A DNA stretch of 37,150 nucleotides from an uncultured Gammaproteobacteria bacterium (GTDB lineage: Bacteria; Patescibacteriota; Microgenomatia; Levybacterales; UBA12049), in the NCBI GenBank assembly GCA_964503265.1, contig CAZCYO010000005.1, positions 1-37,150 on the forward strand, in the 5' to 3' direction. Both the position numbers and the translations under genes were made by a program. A model generated the notes under the pieces. The model saw only the letters and a program-made list of their open reading frames with translations. It searched no databases and was not told the origin of the DNA. This document shows, piece by piece, positions 8,161 through 32,227 of the stretch. Positions within the stretch are counted from its first letter, which is position 1; every line of letters begins with the position of its first letter.

Positions 8161-8595
8161 TTATTTATAGTGCGATTTGATTTGGAACAAGATATAGAAT
8201 GCAATCGCAGCCCAGATAACAGTTGAAATTACATTACTAACTGAAAGTGTTAGTAACGATGAAGCGATGTTTACTACTTCTGACCAGAAGAGAAGTACCC
8301 ATCCACCCATCAGTCTTTTTTGTAGTTTTGGATATGCCATAAGCATCATCACACTAGCTACAACTGATGCAACTCCACTAACGAGTAACATGGTTGTGTT
8401 ACGAACTCCACCAAACATACCAAGTGGTGATACGCCAACTAAACTAATTCCAGCGAGCACTCCGAGTACTCCAAAAATAAGTGCGATCCATGGAGTAATA
8501 TTGACGAGTGTCTCTCGTGCATTTTCAGGAAGTTTTGGTGCGTTTTTATACACATCTTCAAGCATCGCGATTATATCAGTATTATTTTTTGCCAT
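8161..8595 (-). CDS. Hypothetical four-TM membrane protein
   Basis: 144 aa, hydrophobic; GGGGTGA SD-like motif upstream; own terminator. Confidence 0.75.
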   Translation of the reverse strand: MAKNNTDIIAMLEDVYKNAPKLPENARETLVNITPWIALIFGVLGVLAGISLVGVSPLGMFGGVRNTTMLLVSGVASVVASVMMLMAYPKLQKRLMGGWVLLFWSEVVNIASSLLTLSVSNVISTVIWAAIAFYILFQIKSHYK

Positions 8596-8598
8596 TTA

Positions 8599-8679
8599 TT
8601 ATTTCACCCCCCTTCGCCCCGCGTAACTGTAAGCGAAGTGGGGTCTCGCTCCTACAGTGATTTTTGTAAGGTTTTTCAT
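8599..8679 (-). other. 26-aa uORF (MKNLTKITVGARPHFAYSYAGRRGVK) containing a CCCCACTTCGC-family palindromic element
   Basis: Translated by hand; in frame with, and 84 nt upstream of, the 8595 start; element at about 8611-8645. Confidence 0.45.
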
Positions 8680-16563: not shown

Positions 16564-16621
16564 AAGCAAATTCTAGACGCGCTAACAAAAGATAGTAGCA
16601 CAGGAAAAAGAACAACACAAG

Positions 16622-16657
16622 TTAGGAGTTAGTAGATAGTAGGTAGTAGGTAGTAGG
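16622..16657. repeat. Heptamer tandem repeat (TAGTAGG)n
   Basis: TAGTAGA + 3x TAGTAGG at 16630-16657, with a degenerate copy upstream. Confidence 0.8.
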
Positions 16658-16667
16658 TAAAATAGTC

Positions 16668-16726: not shown

Positions 16727-17650
16727 TCACATATTAATTTTTTGGCACTTCTGGCAAATGAATGTCCCTCTCCCGCCTACTACGATTCGCTCGATTGGTG
16801 TTTTGCACCGAAAGCATGGCTTTCCCGTTTGTTTATACACCAGAAAGTGATTCTGATATCCCCCCTTTTCACCAAGTACATTCACATAATCTCGCTCACT
16901 CGCTCCACCGACTTTGATCCCCAGTGTTAATACTTTTTCGATAGACTCAAATAGTGCAGCAGTTTCTTTCTCTTTCAGTGAATTTGCTTTTCGAAGAGGG
17001 TGAATACGACTGTCCCACAGCGCGTCATTGGCATAGATATTCCCAATCCCCGCGATTTTCTGTTGGTCCATCAGTACTTGCTTTATCGGCGCTTTGGAGT
17101 GTGAGAGAATATCGCTAAAATCCTTCACCGCTAAATCTCGTAAAGGCTCTTTCCCTAGTTTGCTAAAAAAACTCATGTCTTGTAACTCAGCACTCTTAAC
17201 TACCTTGATCCACCCAAACTGCCGAATATCATTAAAATAAAGCACAGACTCCTGACTACTATCTCCTAACTTCTGTCTTCTAAACATAAATATGACATGA
17301 GTATATTTATTAGGCAAATCATTTGTTTTATCTTGAGAAATATGAACATTCACAGGCGGATATATGTTCTCTCCCCCTGATACTTTTGATACCCTTGATA
17401 CTCCTGATACATATCTAAAAATCAGCTGCCCCGTCATCTTCACATGAATCGTAATACTGTAGTTATTCGAAAGGTCTATCCCGAGCCCCTTTCCAAATCG
17501 TCTCACTGCAAGTACTTCACCCCCAAGGACATCTGCTATCTCACCAGAAAAGATTCTCGGAAGTACTACATGGATATTCGTAAGCGTTAACCCTACTAAA
17601 TGCTTTTCAAGTCCTCGTCTGATTGTTTCCACCTCTGGTAGCTCAGGCAT
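16727..17650 (-). CDS. mutM: Formamidopyrimidine-DNA glycosylase / AP lyase
   Basis: MPELPEVE N-terminus, RFGK, HVKMTG, AGIGNIYAND, C-terminal CFRC...CQKC zinc finger; AGGAG SD. Confidence 0.96.
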   Translation of the reverse strand: MPELPEVETIRRGLEKHLVGLTLTNIHVVLPRIFSGEIADVLGGEVLAVRRFGKGLGIDLSNNYSITIHVKMTGQLIFRYVSGVSRVSKVSGGENIYPPVNVHISQDKTNDLPNKYTHVIFMFRRQKLGDSSQESVLYFNDIRQFGWIKVVKSAELQDMSFFSKLGKEPLRDLAVKDFSDILSHSKAPIKQVLMDQQKIAGIGNIYANDALWDSRIHPLRKANSLKEKETAALFESIEKVLTLGIKVGGASERDYVNVLGEKGGYQNHFLVYKQTGKPCFRCKTPIERIVVGGRGTFICQKCQKINM

Positions 17651-17662
17651 ACTGTATCTCCT

Positions 17663-17734
17663 TTATTGTTCTTGCCCCTCGTAGCCTTGGCGGAGGCTGG
17701 GCGAAGTGGGGTCAACTTCAGGTAATTCTGGCAT
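17663..17734 (-). other. 23-aa ghost-start uORF MPELPEVDPTSPSLRQGYEGQEQ, in frame with mutM
   Basis: TGGTATACT 7 nt upstream; first 7 codons encode the same residues as mutM; contains a palindromic element at about 17672-17713. Confidence 0.7.
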
Positions 17735-18737: not shown

Positions 18738-19973
18738 TTAGGAACGGGAGGAAGCGCCTACCCGTTCTACGAACGCTTTTATTTCTTTTTTAAATCTCAC
18801 TTCATTAAATTTCTCTGCTTGGGCTCGACACGCTTTTGGATCGATCGAGATTTTTTCGAACTTCGCAATTCCTTTTTTAACCCCTTCTACACTAAGTTCA
18901 TCAAATAATACTCCCGTTTTGCCGTCAACGACCGTTTCTTTAAGCCCTCCAGACTTATACGCGATAACCGGTGTCCCCTCTCCCATCACCTCCACTGGTA
19001 AAATTCCGAAATCTTCATCTTCAAATGCAAATATTGCAGCTTTAGCGTTACGAATCAATTCTTTCTTCTTTTCATCACTGATCTCCCCTAAAAATTCCAC
19101 GTTCTCCCCTGCTAAATCTTCCAGTTCTTTCCCGTACCCAGCAAATGCACGCCCGAATACCTTAAGCGGTATCCCAAGCTCACTACACGCCCGAATCACG
19201 AGTCCCGGATGCTTCGCCCGAGCGAGTCTCCCCCCAGTGACATAATAAGTATTAGGTAGTACGTATTTAGTATTATGTATATTCTGATTTTTTTGATACT
19301 TGATACTTGATACTTGATACTTACTACTAATCTCCACCGGTGGATAGATAACTTCTGCCTCTTTTCGGTAGAACTTTTTAATCCGCGAAGCTACTTCATG
19401 TGAGTTAGCGATGTAATAATCGACATGCGTACTTGTATGCTCATCAATCATTCTCAGAAAATGATTTGCGATATTCCCTAGCATATTCAACAGTGGATAC
19501 TTTTTCCATTCCCGAGCCGTTGCATACCCATACAGGTAGCGAGGTGGAGTATGACAGTAGCAAATATGGACCGGCTTAGAGCTTCGGGCATAGGGCATAG
19601 AGTTGTTATTATTTCCCTTAGCTCTTAGCTCTTTGCTCTTTGCTTCCTGCGTTTTTGTGACTATCATATTCGGAAAGTACGCCCCTGTCGCTGAGACGAT
19701 CACGACGTCATACTCTGAAAAATCAAACGATTTAAACGCAAATGGTGAGAGGAGACGGAATGGACTAATGAGTTTGGCTTTAAATGGAAAGTTCTGGAGA
19801 AACGAGGTTTTAATCTTCCAATTTTTAAATCGCGCTTTATGTGGCCCTAAAAACTCGGGTAAGTAAACTGACGTATAGACTGGAGCCTCCGGAAACATTT
19901 CATGCAATGCTTCCAAAACACGTTCTGCCCCACCATATTCTTTAATGTAATCATGTACAATTGCTATTTTCAT
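18738..19973 (-). CDS. Glycosyltransferase family 4 (GT-B) with two repeat-derived insertions
   Basis: MKIAIVHDY, GGAERVL, YCHTPPRYL, EDFGILPVEVMGEGTPVIAY..GG. Confidence 0.92.
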   Translation of the reverse strand: MKIAIVHDYIKEYGGAERVLEALHEMFPEAPVYTSVYLPEFLGPHKARFKNWKIKTSFLQNFPFKAKLISPFRLLSPFAFKSFDFSEYDVVIVSATGAYFPNMIVTKTQEAKSKELRAKGNNNNSMPYARSSKPVHICYCHTPPRYLYGYATAREWKKYPLLNMLGNIANHFLRMIDEHTSTHVDYYIANSHEVASRIKKFYRKEAEVIYPPVEISSKYQVSSIKYQKNQNIHNTKYVLPNTYYVTGGRLARAKHPGLVIRACSELGIPLKVFGRAFAGYGKELEDLAGENVEFLGEISDEKKKELIRNAKAAIFAFEDEDFGILPVEVMGEGTPVIAYKSGGLKETVVDGKTGVLFDELSVEGVKKGIAKFEKISIDPKACRAQAEKFNEVRFKKEIKAFVERVGASSRS

Positions 19974-19980
19974 ATCATTT

Positions 19981-20005
19981 GTCATTCTCGACTCGATCGA
20001 GAATC
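19981..20005. repeat. GTCAT-type REP-like palindrome
   Basis: GTCATTCTCGACTCGATCGAGAATC (one mismatch to the copy at 29378). Confidence 0.85.
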
Positions 20006-20035
20006 ATAAAACCTGCCCTCGTTTCATATCATACT

Positions 20036-23955: not shown

Positions 23956-24915
23956 ATGGCACGCGAATTTGGTTCACAAATGCCTGAGAAGGGGTCTGAA
24001 GATTTTCGTGCTCAAAAGCCTCTTCCTCTTTCTGAACAACCCGTATCTCGTCGAACTGCATTTCGTGTTGGTGTCGGCGGATTACTGACTGCAATTGGAC
24101 TGGGCGCAATTATCAGATCTCAGGATCACACCACTCCACCTCCAGTCGAACCTTCCCATGAAAAATCATACGATGTTATTTCAGCGAACGCTGAAAGGTT
24201 AGGGATACACGAAAGTACCCTTGAAAAAAACCGTTGGAATACGATTCGCACTGCTTTTCCAGCGGTAAATCGTGAGAAAGGAAAATCTTATCAAAAAGAA
24301 GCACAACAGAGGCTTTCCCATCTTCAGCAAGCGATGCGCGAATCAGAAAATCCCGACATGAGACAAGCTGCATTATATCTAGATAGTTTAGGAGATTCCG
24401 TACGACTTGTTTCAGTTGCTACTCCCCTCCCGACAGTAAGTAATATTGGTTCACTTATGGACACTGCCATCATTGCAGATCCAGAACGAGAAGGAACCGT
24501 AGCGCGCATTCGTGTACAGGAAGAGTATTTATTCAGTGGCTTAGCTCCTGAATACCTTGCTACAGTGCTTGCCCATGAAGCTCGTCATACAAAAGAATTT
24601 ATGACTGAATTAGCAAAACTTCCTTCATCTCTTTCCCCAATTGAACGCCAGCGTGCAATTGAAGCATATTACACTATACATACAGATGACGTTGAAGCAC
24701 GAGGATATGCTACGCAGGTAAACGCATATATTGCGGCCGTCGGATTAACGAGATTTAATGCGTCAAACATAGATCAAAAACTGGGAGATTCAGCAGCCTA
24801 TTTTATTAAAAGCTGTGAGAGTAATGAAGCAAATCCTCTCTGGGTACAGTGGGTAAAAGATGTCTCACGAAAACGAACCGTCGGCGAGATTACGCCAGTC
24901 CCATTTTCTGCTTAA
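23956..24915 (+). CDS. Hypothetical exported protein with a twin-arginine-like motif and an HExxH motif
   Basis: SRRTAF followed by a hydrophobic stretch; VLAHEARH; downstream EARGY; TGGTATGAT 7 nt upstream of the MAREF start. Confidence 0.65.
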   Translation: MAREFGSQMPEKGSEDFRAQKPLPLSEQPVSRRTAFRVGVGGLLTAIGLGAIIRSQDHTTPPPVEPSHEKSYDVISANAERLGIHESTLEKNRWNTIRTAFPAVNREKGKSYQKEAQQRLSHLQQAMRESENPDMRQAALYLDSLGDSVRLVSVATPLPTVSNIGSLMDTAIIADPEREGTVARIRVQEEYLFSGLAPEYLATVLAHEARHTKEFMTELAKLPSSLSPIERQRAIEAYYTIHTDDVEARGYATQVNAYIAAVGLTRFNASNIDQKLGDSAAYFIKSCESNEANPLWVQWVKDVSRKRTVGEITPVPFSA

Positions 24916-25873
24916 CTTCAGTGAGAGTCTCCGAAGCTCGACTCAAACATTTTTCTCTACTTTCTTTAAGTACGCGATCGACATAGTCAGGATTTGCTTC
25001 AAGTTCACGTCTTTTTTCCTGAAGTGGCGCAAGTTCTGTATAAATTGCTTCAGCTAACTCCTGCTTCATATCCCCGTATCGAATTCGTTTCTCTTCATAA
25101 GCCTGAGTATACCTCTGATACATCTCCTCTGTTCCAAACAATTTTAGCATCGTAAATAGATTCGCAACTCCTCCGCGCTGTGGGATTTGCCCTCCCTCAA
25201 CACCACTATCTGTCGGTGCACTCGCGAGTCGCTTTTTAATCGTCTCTAAATCGTCCATGAGCGTAATATAGCTTCCTTCAACAGACTTACTCATCTTTCC
25301 CTCCCCTGACAGTGACGGAACATATTCCCCTGTGGTTGCAAAACGAGTTGGCTCTGGAAATGTCTCACCAAACATACTATTAAATTTCCGTGCTATTTCT
25401 CGTGTTACTTCTAAATGTGGTTCTTGGTCAATTCCGACCGGTACAAGTTCTGCTTTATACAGCATAATATCTGCTGCCATAAGCACTGGATAATAGAGCA
25501 GTCCCATGTTTACGTATTTGGGGTGCTGCGCTTTTTTATCTTTATATGTCGGCAGATCCTCAAGTCGAGATACTGGATAAATTGTACCCAAATAGTACGC
25601 AAGTTCCATATGCTGTGGCACATGCGACTGCACTTCAAGTAAACATTTTTCTGGATCAAGCCCTGCCGCTAAATAATCAATCACAATATTTCGAATATTT
25701 GCCTGGAGAGCACTTGGTTCATACGGCGTTGTAATCGCATGCAGATCCACGACAGAGAAAATACAATCATACTCATCCTGAACAGCCAGCATCCCCTTCA
25801 CCGCCCCAAGGTAATTTCCCAGATGCAACCGATTCGTTGCTCTAATACCAGAATAAACCTTCTTTTTTATCAT
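24890..25873 (-). CDS. trpS: Tryptophan--tRNA ligase
   Basis: HLGN (HIGH), YPVLMAADI, VPVGIDQEPH, KMSKS. Confidence 0.97.
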   Translation of the reverse strand: MIKKKVYSGIRATNRLHLGNYLGAVKGMLAVQDEYDCIFSVVDLHAITTPYEPSALQANIRNIVIDYLAAGLDPEKCLLEVQSHVPQHMELAYYLGTIYPVSRLEDLPTYKDKKAQHPKYVNMGLLYYPVLMAADIMLYKAELVPVGIDQEPHLEVTREIARKFNSMFGETFPEPTRFATTGEYVPSLSGEGKMSKSVEGSYITLMDDLETIKKRLASAPTDSGVEGGQIPQRGGVANLFTMLKLFGTEEMYQRYTQAYEEKRIRYGDMKQELAEAIYTELAPLQEKRRELEANPDYVDRVLKESREKCLSRASETLTEVKQKMGLA

Positions 25874-25944
25874 ACTTTTTCCTTTCTTTCCTGCTTGCCC
25901 TTCCGTAGCTTTATGCGAAGGAGGGAATATACTTTCTTTTTCAT
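25870..25944 (-). other. 24-aa ghost-start uORF MKKKVYSLLRIKLRKGKQERKEKV; its stop overlaps the trpS ATG (ATGA)
   Basis: KKKVYS matches the trpS N-terminus MIKKKVYSG; contains a palindromic element at about 25894-25925; TTGCGG-N17-TACAAT at 25982-25954 upstream. Confidence 0.7.
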
Positions 25945-25949
25945 ATCGC

Positions 25950-26651
25950 TCATATTGTAGTATTTTTATAATATCTCCGCAATAAAGACTGGGCCAATAT
26001 TTCAAGAGAATTGTATACAGGCACTTTATATTTAGTAGGAAAAATTAATGGAAGCTCAGTACAGCCAAGAATTATTCCCTGTGCACCTTTTTCAACAAGT
26101 ATATCTGCTAGTCTAACAAGTAACTTTTTTTGAGAAGGAGATGTTTTTCCAGCGATAACACTTCTTATCACTGATTCAATTGTTGAGAATTCTTCATCTC
26201 CTACTGAGATAACTTCAATACCTTTATTAATAAGCTCAGTGTGGTAAATCTTTGATCGAAGTGTAGATGGAGTTCCTAAAATTCCTACTTTTTTAATTGA
26301 GTCATTTGTAACTATTTTAACAACTTCGGTAATCATCGAGACAAAAGATACCACTGAGCATCTTTGTAATTCAGGTAATAGAATATGCGCAGTATTACAA
26401 GCAATTGATAAACAATCTAACTCAAGATGCTGTAACTGTTTAACTCGCGTAATGAGCATTGTTAGTGCTTTTTCTTTAGCATCTTCACTCGATATGAAAT
26501 CCGGCACCGGAATAGACTGAAGTATAATTTCAGGAAAGTCATCATTATGCTTTGCTCCAAAATCTCGAATTGCTAACTCAATAAGAAGTTTATATAAATA
26601 TCCTGATGCTTCAGGTCCCATTCCTCCTAGTATTCCAATTGCTTTTTTCAT
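25950..26651 (-). CDS. Aspartate/glutamate racemase family protein (PLP-independent)
   Basis: IGILGGMGP, IACNTAH and ILGCTELP catalytic cysteine motifs. Confidence 0.92.
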   Translation of the reverse strand: MKKAIGILGGMGPEASGYLYKLLIELAIRDFGAKHNDDFPEIILQSIPVPDFISSEDAKEKALTMLITRVKQLQHLELDCLSIACNTAHILLPELQRCSVVSFVSMITEVVKIVTNDSIKKVGILGTPSTLRSKIYHTELINKGIEVISVGDEEFSTIESVIRSVIAGKTSPSQKKLLVRLADILVEKGAQGIILGCTELPLIFPTKYKVPVYNSLEILAQSLLRRYYKNTTI

Positions 26652-27838: not shown

Positions 27839-28118
27839 AAAAAAAGCCCTTGCAAAACCACAAAGAAAATTGTGATCTTACAAGGGCTTATTACAAGCGG
27901 TGCCACCTTGCGAGTGTCTCTATAAAAAAATGCTCCCATTACGGAAGCAAAATCATGAAAGAAACCTTATTCATGACGTGCTTAATCTTCTTTGACTCAA
28001 CTTGTGCTGAGCTTGCCGAAGCAATTCACGTTACTGACTGTTACCCACGTTCGTCTGTGGCGCATTATGTATTTTGCGAAAGCTCCCTAGGGTCCAAAAT
28101 TCCCAGATCAACGCTTAT
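27839..28118 (-). ncRNA. T-box riboswitch leader, ultra-short Stem I, Trp specifier, transcription-termination type
   Basis: K-turn Stem I at 28114-28082 with UGG at 28096-28094; antiterminator CAAGG-UGGCACC-GCUU/AAGC-CCUUG at 27910-27881; competing terminator 27889-27844 followed by a U tract. Confidence 0.85.
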
Positions 28119-28124
28119 AGATGT

Positions 28125-28152
28125 ATTTTAGCGTAAAAATAGTTTTTGTCAA
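28125..28152 (-). promoter_or_regulatory. Sigma70 promoter for the T-box leader
   Basis: TTGACA(28152-28147)-N16-TAAAAT(28130-28125). Confidence 0.7.
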
Positions 28153-29367: not shown

Positions 29368-29377
29368 ACCATACGCT

Positions 29378-29402
29378 GTCATTCTCGACTGGATCGAGAA
29401 TC
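29378..29402. repeat. GTCAT-type REP-like palindrome
   Basis: GTCATTCTCGACTGGATCGAGAATC. Confidence 0.85.
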
Positions 29403-29474
29403 ATTTTGATAGATCCGAATAAGAATAATCATAATTTTCTATGGCATGTGAGGTGGTTCAGATAAAGTATCCAC

Positions 29475-30813: not shown

Positions 30814-32182
30814 ACATTAACCCCCTCACTGCTTCTTTAAACAAATTCCCTCTCTCTTTATAATTTTTAAACATCCCGAAGCTGGCACAAGCTGGTGAGA
30901 GAAGTACGACATTCCCCTCGGTTGCGATTTTTGCAGCTGCGAGCACCACCTGCTCCATATTTGTAGCACCTTCAATAAATAAAATTTCGGATTTCGGATT
31001 TCGGATTTCGGATTTAATCTTCTCCCATTCCTCCCCAATCCCAATAATTGCCTTTATATTCTTAGCAGTACTAATAACTTTTCCAAGCTCGGTAAAATCA
31101 GATCCTTTGCTGTGTCCACCTAAAATAAGTATCTCTGGAACTGAAAATGCCTCGATCGCCGCTATAGCTGTCTCAGGCGTGGTTGAGAACGAATCATCGT
31201 AGTACCCTACTCCTCCTACTGTTTTAACCAGTTCTAGACGGTGTTCAAGCCCTGAAAACGATGTTAAGACAGCCACAATGCTCTCTTTTGAGACTCCTGA
31301 CAATGTCGCAGCCATAACAGCCGCACAGACATTCTCTAGATTATGTTTTCCAGGAAGCAACACATCTTTACTATCAATCACTTTTTCTTCTTTTCCATGT
31401 TGTCTCAGATACACTATGCCTTTTTCAACATAACAGCCTTGATCAGTCGTTCGTTCACGACTTACCTGGTAAATCTGTCCTTCAGTATAAATATCTGATT
31501 CATGCGTAGCTATGTAATCACGATTTAAAATCGCGATATCGTTTCGTTCCTGGAAGCGAAGGATATTTCGTTTTGCATCAACATACTCGTAGGTGTCTTT
31601 ATGATAATCCAAATGATCACTGGTAATCATAAGCATAACTGCGATATGAGGACTACTATGCAGGTCATGGAGTTGAAAACTCGAGAGTTCTAAGACCACG
31701 ATAGATTGAGGCGTTAATTTACTCAAAAACGTTAATGGAGGAAGCCCAATATTTCCGCCTAGATATGCATCTTTTCCTTCTTTTTTTAACATTTCAGTTA
31801 TTAGTGTCGAAGTGGTACCTTTTCCTTTCGTCCCAGTCACACCAATGATTGGACATGGAGATGCATCGAAAAATAGCTGCGTATGAGAAGTGATGACTAC
31901 CCCTTTTTCTTTTGCTTGTTGAACTTCAGGAAGAAGAGACGAAATTCCCGGACTTCGAACGATAATATCAAACTCTTGTAGATGTGTGAGGTAGTCTTCG
32001 CCAAGAATAAACTCAGTAATACCCATCTGTTTAAGACCTGCGACGAGTGTTCGGTCGAGATCTGCTTCTTTTTTATGATCAAGCATCGTGATCTGTGCCT
32101 GTTTCGTTGAGAGGAAATGTGCGGTTGCAACACCTTCCAGGCCAATTCCTAAAATACCAATTTTTTTATTCGTAAAATCCAT
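30812..32182 (-). CDS. murD: UDP-N-acetylmuramoyl-L-alanine--D-glutamate ligase
   Basis: GVTGTKGKGTT, GGNIG, LELSSFQL, DHLDYH, GLEHRLE, LLSPACASFGMF. Confidence 0.96.
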   Translation of the reverse strand: MDFTNKKIGILGIGLEGVATAHFLSTKQAQITMLDHKKEADLDRTLVAGLKQMGITEFILGEDYLTHLQEFDIIVRSPGISSLLPEVQQAKEKGVVITSHTQLFFDASPCPIIGVTGTKGKGTTSTLITEMLKKEGKDAYLGGNIGLPPLTFLSKLTPQSIVVLELSSFQLHDLHSSPHIAVMLMITSDHLDYHKDTYEYVDAKRNILRFQERNDIAILNRDYIATHESDIYTEGQIYQVSRERTTDQGCYVEKGIVYLRQHGKEEKVIDSKDVLLPGKHNLENVCAAVMAATLSGVSKESIVAVLTSFSGLEHRLELVKTVGGVGYYDDSFSTTPETAIAAIEAFSVPEILILGGHSKGSDFTELGKVISTAKNIKAIIGIGEEWEKIKSEIRNPKSEILFIEGATNMEQVVLAAAKIATEGNVVLLSPACASFGMFKNYKERGNLFKEAVRGLM

Positions 32183-32195
32183 AATTATATGTATT

Positions 32196-32220
32196 GTCAT
32201 TCCCGACCTGATCGGGAATC
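32196..32220. repeat. GTCAT-type REP-like palindrome
   Basis: GTCATTCCCGACCTGATCGGGAATC between murI and murD. Confidence 0.85.
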
Positions 32221-32227
32221 ATGTGTA

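Follow-up and report, generated by a model that had tools for sequence, protein, structure and literature searches.

A hairpin repeat between an original and a replacement start of trpS in a Levybacteria-like genome

Introduction

Why should a gene for tryptophanyl-tRNA synthetase (TrpRS) carry its first codons twice, once in an upstream open reading frame (uORF) that ends on its start codon and once in the gene itself? The question is raised by trpS on a 37,150-nt stretch of DNA (contig CAZCYO010000005.1 of assembly GCA_964503265.1, positions 1 to 37,150), deposited as an uncultured Gammaproteobacteria bacterium and placed by GTDB in the Levybacterales of the Patescibacteriota. This whole stretch is denoted as the window; its coordinates are used throughout, and all relevant genes lie on its minus strand. 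The two copies of the trpS start are separated by a 32-nt hairpin, a member of a family of short repeats here termed E. The locus is probably best read as an insertion allele at the trpS 5' end that comes with a replacement start, rather than as a regulatory leader, with expression of the gene coupled to the old start and with gain and loss by recombination. The arrangement is real and recurrent, and, as the first-pass annotation of this sequence had already remarked, it has no name as far as Rfam, isolate phage and plasmid collections and the literature were searched.

The two starts of trpS

The trpS gene (24890-25873, 327 aa) begins ATG ATA AAA AAG AAG GTT TAT TCT GGT (MIKKKVYSG). It is preceded by an ORF of the Asp/Glu racemase family (25950-26651, ending ACA ATA TGA), after whose stop codon the sequence reads GCGAT ATG AAA AAG AAA GTA TAT TCC CTC CTT CGC ATA AAG CTA CGG AAG GGC AAG CAG GAA AGA AAG GAA AAA GTA TGA. 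This segment holds a uORF (25870-25953) that comprises 24 codons from the ATG at 25944 and 27 codons from an in-frame ATG at 25953. Translation from the former (25944-25870) gives MKKKVYSLLRIKLRKGKQERKEKV followed by the stop, i.e. MKKKVYS joined to LLRIKLRKGKQERKEKV. The head of this frame, an ATG and six further codons (25924-25944), is referred to as the ghost start. As proposed in the first-pass annotation, and confirmed on the minus strand, it differs from the trpS start in the shared codons only by synonymous changes (AAA/AAG, GTA/GTT, TCC/TCT), with one extra codon (ATA) in the gene. The E copy (CCCTCCTTCGCATAAAGCTACGGAAGGGCAAG, 25894-25925) begins 19 nt inside the original trpS reading frame, lies within the uORF and is recognized by a covariance model at 43.5 bits (E-value 4e-10). 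A 20-nt purine-rich spacer (25874-25893) with a Shine-Dalgarno-like AAAGGA follows and precedes the new start. The TGA of the uORF (25872-25870) overlaps the trpS ATG in an ATGA (25873-25870), likewise in agreement with the earlier claim.

Neither chance nor assembly accounts for the likeness of the two starts. In 20,000 shuffles of the 120 nt upstream, a 6/6 N-terminal match was never obtained, either for trpS or for mutM, a second gene with this layout (see below); the suspicion that the KKKVYS match merely reflects A-rich low complexity was thus not borne out. Among the ORFs of at least 90 aa in the window, trpS and mutM are the only ones with an upstream start repeating their own first residues. 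An independent Logan contig of sequencing run X1 spans positions 25700-26100 (401 nt) without a single difference, and the succession of ghost, hairpin, and new start is found again in contigs of two other studies (runs X3 and X4; 99% and 90% identity).

Relatives without the insert reveal which of the two starts is the older one. TrpRS homologues of Levybacteria mostly start with MKK[KR]VYSGIRATG, and the adjacency of racemase gene and trpS is native in this group. Three loci (L130, L146, L170) represent empty sites, where the racemase gene, a TTGCNN-N17-TACAAT motif and an ATG opening MKKKVYSGIR follow each other with no hairpin. L130, with the same racemase 3' end, reads TTGCAC-N17-TACAAT, AGGAGCGTT, ATG AAG AAA AAA, and then directly GTA TAT TCT GGT ATT. 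The window agrees with it upstream and over the first 19-20 nt of the gene, after which hairpin, 20-nt spacer, and second start intervene before the sequence resumes with GGT ATT AGA. A plain MKKKVYSG start, again with no hairpin, is also found in L001, L004, and L005, and the window ghost is identical to the real L004 start over 20/20 nt. Judged by these comparisons, the ghost is the original gene start, which has kept its old place next to the conserved 3' end of the racemase gene. The earlier view that the upstream N-terminus had been copied from the gene is therefore reversed, since relatives with empty sites have the same upstream sequence and the same start in the absence of the hairpin.

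Two further observations concern the 5' region of trpS in relatives. L141, L142, and L177 carry a related hairpin ending GGGCAAG (CCCTTGGACAAAGCTCAGGGCAAG, encoding a peptide that ends in AQGK) in frame after trpS codon 3, with neither ghost nor second start (MKR[PLDKAQGK]RVYSG); as far as these reading frames show, some insertions into the trpS N-terminus are tolerated. L004 has a T-box-like motif, GGTGGTACCGC, and a terminator upstream of trpS. In the window, the region 27839-28152 gave no Rfam match at the gathering score or at E-values up to 1.

Recurrence of the layout at trpS

Among about 55 Levybacteria-like trpS loci compared, the succession of ghost, hairpin, and new start occurs in seven lineages. 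The association is strict: each of the seven E-bearing trpS loci has a ghost, and ghosts are confined to loci with E. Two junctions are found. In five lineages (the window, L131, L133, L134/135, and L150), the original frame is broken after TAT TC (VYS), and in two (L155 and L161) after GCA AC (IRAT), twelve codons into the gene. The spacer 3' of the hairpin contains a Shine-Dalgarno-like (C/T)(A/T)GGA in all trpS cases, including L131, L133, L134, and L150. At the shared junction, ghost ATG and real ATG are 71, 71, 62, 68, and 68 nt apart, a distance that is always 2 mod 3. Frame and ATGA overlap are kept in four of these five lineages; L150 has a premature TAG.

L161 differs in the length of the inserted segment. 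Here, 729 nt lie between the hairpin and the new start (MIKKRVYSGIRATG), including a gene for a 201-aa protein with an NYN domain (Pfam E-value 2e-23), and the uORF ends 22 nt into this gene. The interval between hairpin and new start can therefore, to judge from this predicted gene, hold cargo.

Other genes with displaced starts

The mutM gene of the window (16727-17650) shows the same layout. Its uORF (17663-17734), translated as MPELPEVDPTSPSLRQGYEGQEQ up to the stop, contains an E copy at 17669-17713 (38.5 bits). The order is TGGTATACT, 7 nt, ATG CCA GAA TTA CCT GAA GTT GA, hairpin, AAGGAG, and the replacement start ATG CCT GAG CTA CCA GAG GTG GAA (MPELPEVE), in which all six codons after the ATG are spelled unlike those of the ghost. 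An empty site is present in relative L128, where TGCTATACT, 9 nt, and ATG CCT GAA CTA CCA GAA GTC GAG succeed each other and no ghost is found. Relative L127 has the mutM ghost with two changes, both non-synonymous (MPELPEV to MPELSDV), and its first nine real codons are identical to those of the window. Here the insert has led to a false N-terminal extension of 28 residues in a public gene call (P0122, L127 270-360), in which MutM is fused to the hairpin leader (MLTPLRPASATATSGKQGYEGQEQVRRYS-MPELPEV).

A third case in the window is degenerate. A uORF at 8599-8679, translated as MKNLTKITVGARPHFAYSYAGRRGVK and closed by two stops, contains a weak E copy (8610-8645) and ends 3 nt before the next ATG. 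The gene that follows, a 144-aa membrane ORF starting MAKNNTDII (8161-8595), matches its uORF at 4/6 N-terminal residues, a level reached by 25 of 20,000 shuffles, and is probably a further example of the layout. Outside the window, clpP of a Berkelbacteria metagenome-assembled genome (MAG) has MTYLIPT as ghost and MSYLIPTVIE as real start, and adk of a Patescibacteria MAG has VDLVFFGI and MDLVFFGIQGSGKG. The proteins concerned make use of their first residues: Pro2 is the nucleophile of MutM, the P-loop of Adk and the N-terminal loop of ClpP lie there, and in TrpRS the strand before the HIGH motif.

Most E copies are not accompanied by a ghost start (about 126 of 130 sampled across phyla), an outcome that the first-pass annotation would have counted against its proposal. 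Nevertheless, the pattern-matched set holds three clean ghost cases with at least six matches, and only about 0.05 per 130 would be expected from a shuffled-pair control. Among 120 cross-phylum loci, no long-range ghosts were found beyond L009 and L028, and a scan of the flanking peptides of about 150 E copies in both orientations, directed at ghost copies of gene 3' ends, yielded nothing above control beyond the known 5' cases. Of the recurring mechanism that was suspected to duplicate gene starts, the non-random recurrence of the layout with one element family thus stands; simple duplication is argued against (see below).

Two side observations were made at gene starts and within mutM. MutM has a hypervariable in-frame site after HVKMTGQLIF (window 17372-17408; L127 599-632), which is occupied in the window by four 9-nt repeats (VSG VSR VSK VSG), in L127 by a full E hairpin, and in other relatives by other inserts of 10-15 residues or by none. 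A second hairpin family (ATGATTCTCGATCGAGTCGAGAATGACAAATGATAT and variants) lies on three gene starts of the window (19972-20007, 29369-29404, and 32187-32222, minus strand). At 19985, the gene takes its ATG from the 3' arm (GAGAATGAC), and an upstream frame of 10 codons begins at the 5' arm. The design, a hairpin combined with a start codon, looks similar, and the family is a different one from E.

The hairpin family E

E is a hairpin of about 31 nt with the consensus CCC-NN-CTTCGC-(loop or inner stem)-GCTACG-NN-GGGCAAG-C. The commonest form has 30 nt (CCCGCCTTCGCCAAGGCTACGGCGGGCAAG) and is usually followed by C; longer copies have an extra inner stem between CTTCGC and GCTACG. A search of contigs from one genome per species with the pattern CCCNNCTTCGC-N(1-25)-GCTACG-N(2-3)-GGGCAAG, for which about three matches are expected by chance according to our own estimate, found it in at least 120 stretches or genomes. 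Among the matches listed, all are MAGs, and they include Patescibacteria (Berkel-, Roizman-, Shapiro-, Nomura-, Magasanik-, Peri-, and Saccharibacteria) as well as Planctomycetota, Acidobacteriota, Verrucomicrobiota, Bacteroidota, Proteobacteria, Dependentiae, Elusimicrobia, and others. E is located within coding regions and between genes, in both orientations. It also occurs in 23 viral contigs of IMG/VR (L213-L235), two of which have two copies 495 nt apart; E might have spread across phyla by way of viruses.

The stem is supported by covariation. The bases covary at the two positions that the search pattern leaves open, with 21 and 12 of 63 sequences changed on both sides (the remaining pairs are fixed by the pattern and hence uninformative), and the covariation score of 0.138 exceeds that of shuffles (0.035; reached by 0 of 500) and of slid controls, which lie far lower. 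A covariance model, R1, built from these 63 copies finds three E copies in the window, at trpS, at mutM (E-value 1e-8), and at 8610-8645 (19.1 bits, E-value 0.002). The pattern shared by the trpS and mutM elements, noticed in the first reading of the sequence, is thus captured by a single model. All three copies are in sense orientation and inside a uORF that ends at the start of the next gene.

A flank profile of 132 copies contains no conserved or duplicated short flank except for the C after CAAG, and the inverted arms belong to a single hairpin; CAGG is the commonest 3' flank. Many copies are embedded in arrays of 7-nt tandem repeats, and short partial E duplications are common alongside. 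Such arrays are also present in the window ((TACTTAC)n, (TAGTAGG)n, and (TTTCGGA)n, at 1-58, 16616-16659, and 30971-31015); the heptamer of E-bearing arrays differs from genome to genome across many phyla. In a Flammeovirgaceae MAG (L039), E is part of a 174-nt unit with at least three tandem repeats.

A gene that mobilizes E was not encountered in its surroundings. Within 700 nt of 120 copies, there is no transposase, integrase, RAYT-like gene, or gene for a four-helix bundle of the 23S intervening sequence type, and an all-against-all comparison of the 354 small ORFs in these regions produced no recurrent gene family. The cognate mobilizer for which the first-pass annotation had proposed to look beside longer copies is thus not seen next to these 120. 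E has no match in isolate plasmid and phage collections, or in Rfam at the gathering score or at E-values up to 1; literature searches by sequence and peptide string returned nothing on E, and those by keyword only papers on Rickettsia palindromic elements (RPE) and miniature inverted-repeat transposable elements.

Origin, inheritance, and expression of the insert

The differences between ghost and real copies are informative about their origin. Counted by hand over six independent pairs (trpS of the window, L155, and L161; mutM of the window; clpP; adk), about 24 codon differences are synonymous and 2 non-synonymous. No pair is identical in sequence, and some synonymous changes require several steps (AGA/CGT in L134, TCC/AGC in L131, AGG/CGA in L161). 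A neutral ghost that was identical to the gene at its birth would not give a ratio of 24:2; either the two copies stem from functional alleles that had already diverged, or the ghost is maintained or renewed in another way.

The distribution of the block agrees with gain or loss by recombination. It is present or absent among close relatives and is found behind at least three different upstream contexts. The X3 and X4 contigs part from the window sequence precisely at the ghost ATG and continue into two further promoter contexts, of which one resembles the upstream region of L004. In a TrpRS tree, ghost-bearing sequences are scattered, requiring six changes, and the window TrpRS falls, with 100/100 support, within a clade that is otherwise empty (L001, L004, L005). 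The body of its gene is native to this clade, as indicated by an RATN signature from about codon 9 and by closest similarity in every 60-nt window. Identity between the window and L127 alternates between blocks of 100% and of about 70%, a mosaic that shows, at the level of the aligned sequences, frequent recombination.

On the preferred reading as an insertion allele, the block would be gained and lost by homologous recombination, for which the ghost codons offer a left arm and the gene body a right arm. The ghost would then have belonged to the recipient from the outset, and the donor allele would have supplied the new start, hence the synonymous differences between the copies. Its first origin may be sought in two diverged alleles recombining at the hairpin, or in a template switch there followed by shuffling of alleles.

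Concerning expression, ribosomes starting at the old ATG would melt the hairpin, terminate on the UGA over the new AUG, and reinitiate; trpS would thus keep its old expression signals, and a complete TrpRS would still be made. Translational coupling of this kind is suggested by the position of the uORF stop: 10 of 12 cases have it between -15 and +10 relative to the real ATG. In the window, ribosomes may also arrive from the racemase stop. The ATG at 25953, in frame with the uORF, overlaps the racemase TGA in a further ATGA (25953-25950), so that racemase gene, uORF, and trpS form a chain of two such overlaps. The window racemase is three codons shorter than that of L130 (GGA changed to TGA; window 25950-25960, L130 1255-1275). 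A promoter-like sequence, read directly from the DNA, is situated within the racemase 3' end (25954-25982): TTGCGG (25982-25977), 17 nt, and TACAAT (25959-25954), with 9 nt between TACAAT and the ATG at 25944. Sequence and distance are as reported in the first-pass annotation, but its designation as a promoter is not shared by a consensus scan, which made no call here (the -35 element matches at 3/6 positions). TTGCNN-N17-TACAAT is kept whether or not the insert is present (relatives L130, L131, L146, and L170), and a putative role in transcription is assumed.

Several points weigh against this reading. To enter the window lineage, the block would need a very short conversion tract (about 75-95 nt), its arms measuring about 20 nt (the ghost) and at most 30 nt. 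Three independent precise losses in L001, L004, and L005 fit the tree equally well; recombination between the two copies, removing the block precisely and repeatedly, is likewise compatible with the facts. In the five lineages with the shared junction, nucleotide identity is higher among the ghost codons (76-86%) than among the real copies (60-70%); this conservation, with mostly synonymous or K/R changes, could reflect direct selection as a translation start rather than resetting by recombination. E was found near none of about 48 hairpin-free trpS loci, there is no E in a 5' untranslated region without a ghost, and no trpS allele was seen in which an in-frame E lacks a second start. Since none of the three sense frames of the hairpin has a stop and the spacer is rich in A and T, a uORF stop near the real start could partly be the default outcome. 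Finally, the trpS locus occurs in none of the RNA runs searched, and transcription start, uORF translation, and coupling are deduced from the DNA.

A more far-reaching proposal, possible though rather doubtful, is that E blocks are nuclease-free "homing" cassettes of bacteria of the Candidate Phyla Radiation (CPR). The hairpin would travel together with recoded first codons of a conserved essential gene and enter by natural transformation, the recipient's start acting as left arm and the gene body as right arm, with the displaced start being kept through coupling. If so, the insert would be lost only by precise recombination, and the starts of essential genes would be safe landing sites, also for cargo such as the NYN-domain gene of L161.

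Alternative explanations

It is conceivable, but judged unlikely, that the hairpin transposes and thereby creates a long target-site duplication of 20-45 nt comprising Shine-Dalgarno sequence, ATG, and first codons, with copies identical at birth that later diverged. The strict linkage of ghost and hairpin at trpS would be explained in this way, the repeat reaches upstream of the ATG into the Shine-Dalgarno region in clpP, adk, L134, and L161, and short partial duplications beside E are frequent (19 nt in L127; others in L008, L021, L026, L037, and L047). However, E copies located in frame within genes have no flank duplication, as in a class I synthetase (L013), in mutM of L127, and in a GTPase (L108), where 33 extra nt lie between the codons for ERGITI and INIVDTPGH. 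The lack of any identical pair and the synonymous bias are also difficult to reconcile with it, the more so as the mutM ghost decays non-synonymously, and in L161 the cargo separates the hairpin from the second copy by 729 nt.

Quite unlikely is a site-specific integrative cassette, for which E would be the attachment site of small elements entering gene 5' ends with a replacement end, the short versions being remnants devoid of cargo. The NYN-domain gene of L161 between hairpin and replacement start, a left junction that is always the CCC foot of the hairpin (six junction types), and the viral contigs with E agree with this idea. It is contradicted by the absence of an integrase or recurrent gene within 700 nt of the 120 copies examined, by the lack of an identical conserved core common to ghost and real copies, and by the number of genes affected: five, each with a gene-specific replacement end, which one site-specific element cannot carry.

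There is little to recommend a selected regulatory leader, in which uORF and hairpin would act as a leader-peptide or attenuator switch for trpS and MKKKVYS would be selected, e.g. as an efficient leaderless start or a nascent-peptide signal. Conserved ghost codons in five lineages, the kept frame and ATGA overlap, and the location of all three window copies in gene leaders in sense orientation would suit such a role. Yet the uORF has no Trp codon, and in 25700-26100 no terminator-like site was found, the hairpin being followed by CAGGAAAG and no U tract; the trpS leader folds no better than shuffles (z +1.65). Moreover, close relatives have no E leader, the mutM ghost of L127 has lost two of six residues, E is read in different frames in the trpS and mutM uORFs, and it is found inside coding regions and intergenically in both orientations across many phyla. 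A Trp attenuator or a T-box remnant was rejected on account of the missing Trp codons and terminator and the lack of an Rfam match. Ribosomal bypass as in gene 60 was rejected as well: take-off and landing codons do not match (TCC/TCT in the window, TCC/TCA in L133 and L134, TCC/AGC in L131), and a full second start with its own ATG makes programmed bypass unnecessary.

That A-rich codons resemble each other by chance, or that two strains were joined in a chimeric assembly, has practically no probability left, despite the low-complexity KKK run and the metagenomic origin of the genome: the shuffles, the orthologous empty site, the seven lineages with the layout, the independent assembly, and the contigs of two other studies speak against it.

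Relation to known systems

The arrangement is akin to two known kinds of events: hairpin repeats entering genes and insertions that bring a replacement gene end. The latter are exemplified by e14 and phage 21, which integrate at the 3' end of icd in Escherichia coli; some integrases target the ends of tRNA genes. At icd, a replacement copy of the displaced end is likewise provided, with mostly synonymous differences, and the displaced end is left as a stub. In these cases the element is large, enters at a 3' end, and comes with an integrase and an identical att core. In contrast, the trpS insert is located at a 5' end, is as small as 72 nt with no gene, involves no recombinase and no identical core, and turns the stub into a uORF.

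Among hairpin repeats, RPE are said to have been described by Ogata and colleagues in 2000 as selfish repeats present in frame in protein-coding genes. Both RPE and E are short palindromic sequences with open frames that occur in ORFs and intergenic regions and are tolerated as an extra peptide (for E, in the L108 GTPase, the L013 synthetase, and L127 MutM). RPE measure about 100-150 bp and belong to one genus, whereas E has about 31 nt and occurs in many phyla, and for RPE no replacement of gene starts is described. RPE are a topic of PMC1779305.

Repetitive extragenic palindromic (REP) sequences and bacterial interspersed mosaic elements are paired with RAYT transposases, which resemble the Y1 enzymes of IS200/IS605. 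They share with E imperfect hairpins of about 35 nt, a conserved flanking tetranucleotide (in E, CAAG after the 3' foot), a frequent arrangement in arrays, and a non-autonomous nature. REP sequences have GTAG at the 5' side and are extragenic and species-specific; the outside motif of E is CAAG(C) at the 3' side, a 5' GTAG is lacking, and no RAYT-like gene is located near the 120 copies. The small dispersed repeats of Nostocaceae are also tiny hairpins that can lie in frame in genes, but they produce short target duplications and are restricted to a lineage, whereas E crosses phyla and its flank profile has no short duplication.

With usual stop-start coupling through ATGA, the locus has in common the uORF UGA over the trpS AUG and the racemase UGA over the uORF AUG. 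It differs in that the upstream frame is a displaced gene start broken by a mobile hairpin and not a neighbouring gene; the coupling itself is predicted.

Implications

The first codons of trpS, mutM, clpP, and adk can harbour a 31-nt repeat, and these essential genes survive it because a replacement start accompanies the insert. This represents a new way for mobile DNA to occupy essential genes in reduced genomes, no description of which was found. It also matters for annotation, as ghost uORFs resemble conserved leader peptides, are joined to the gene in some automatic gene calls, and are at risk of being misread as regulators or as N-terminal extensions. E itself points to a widespread repeat that has escaped study, and for which hosts or phages may have a conserved recognition factor. 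Owing to their presence or absence and mosaic identity, the blocks are handy markers of recombination among uncultivated CPR lineages.

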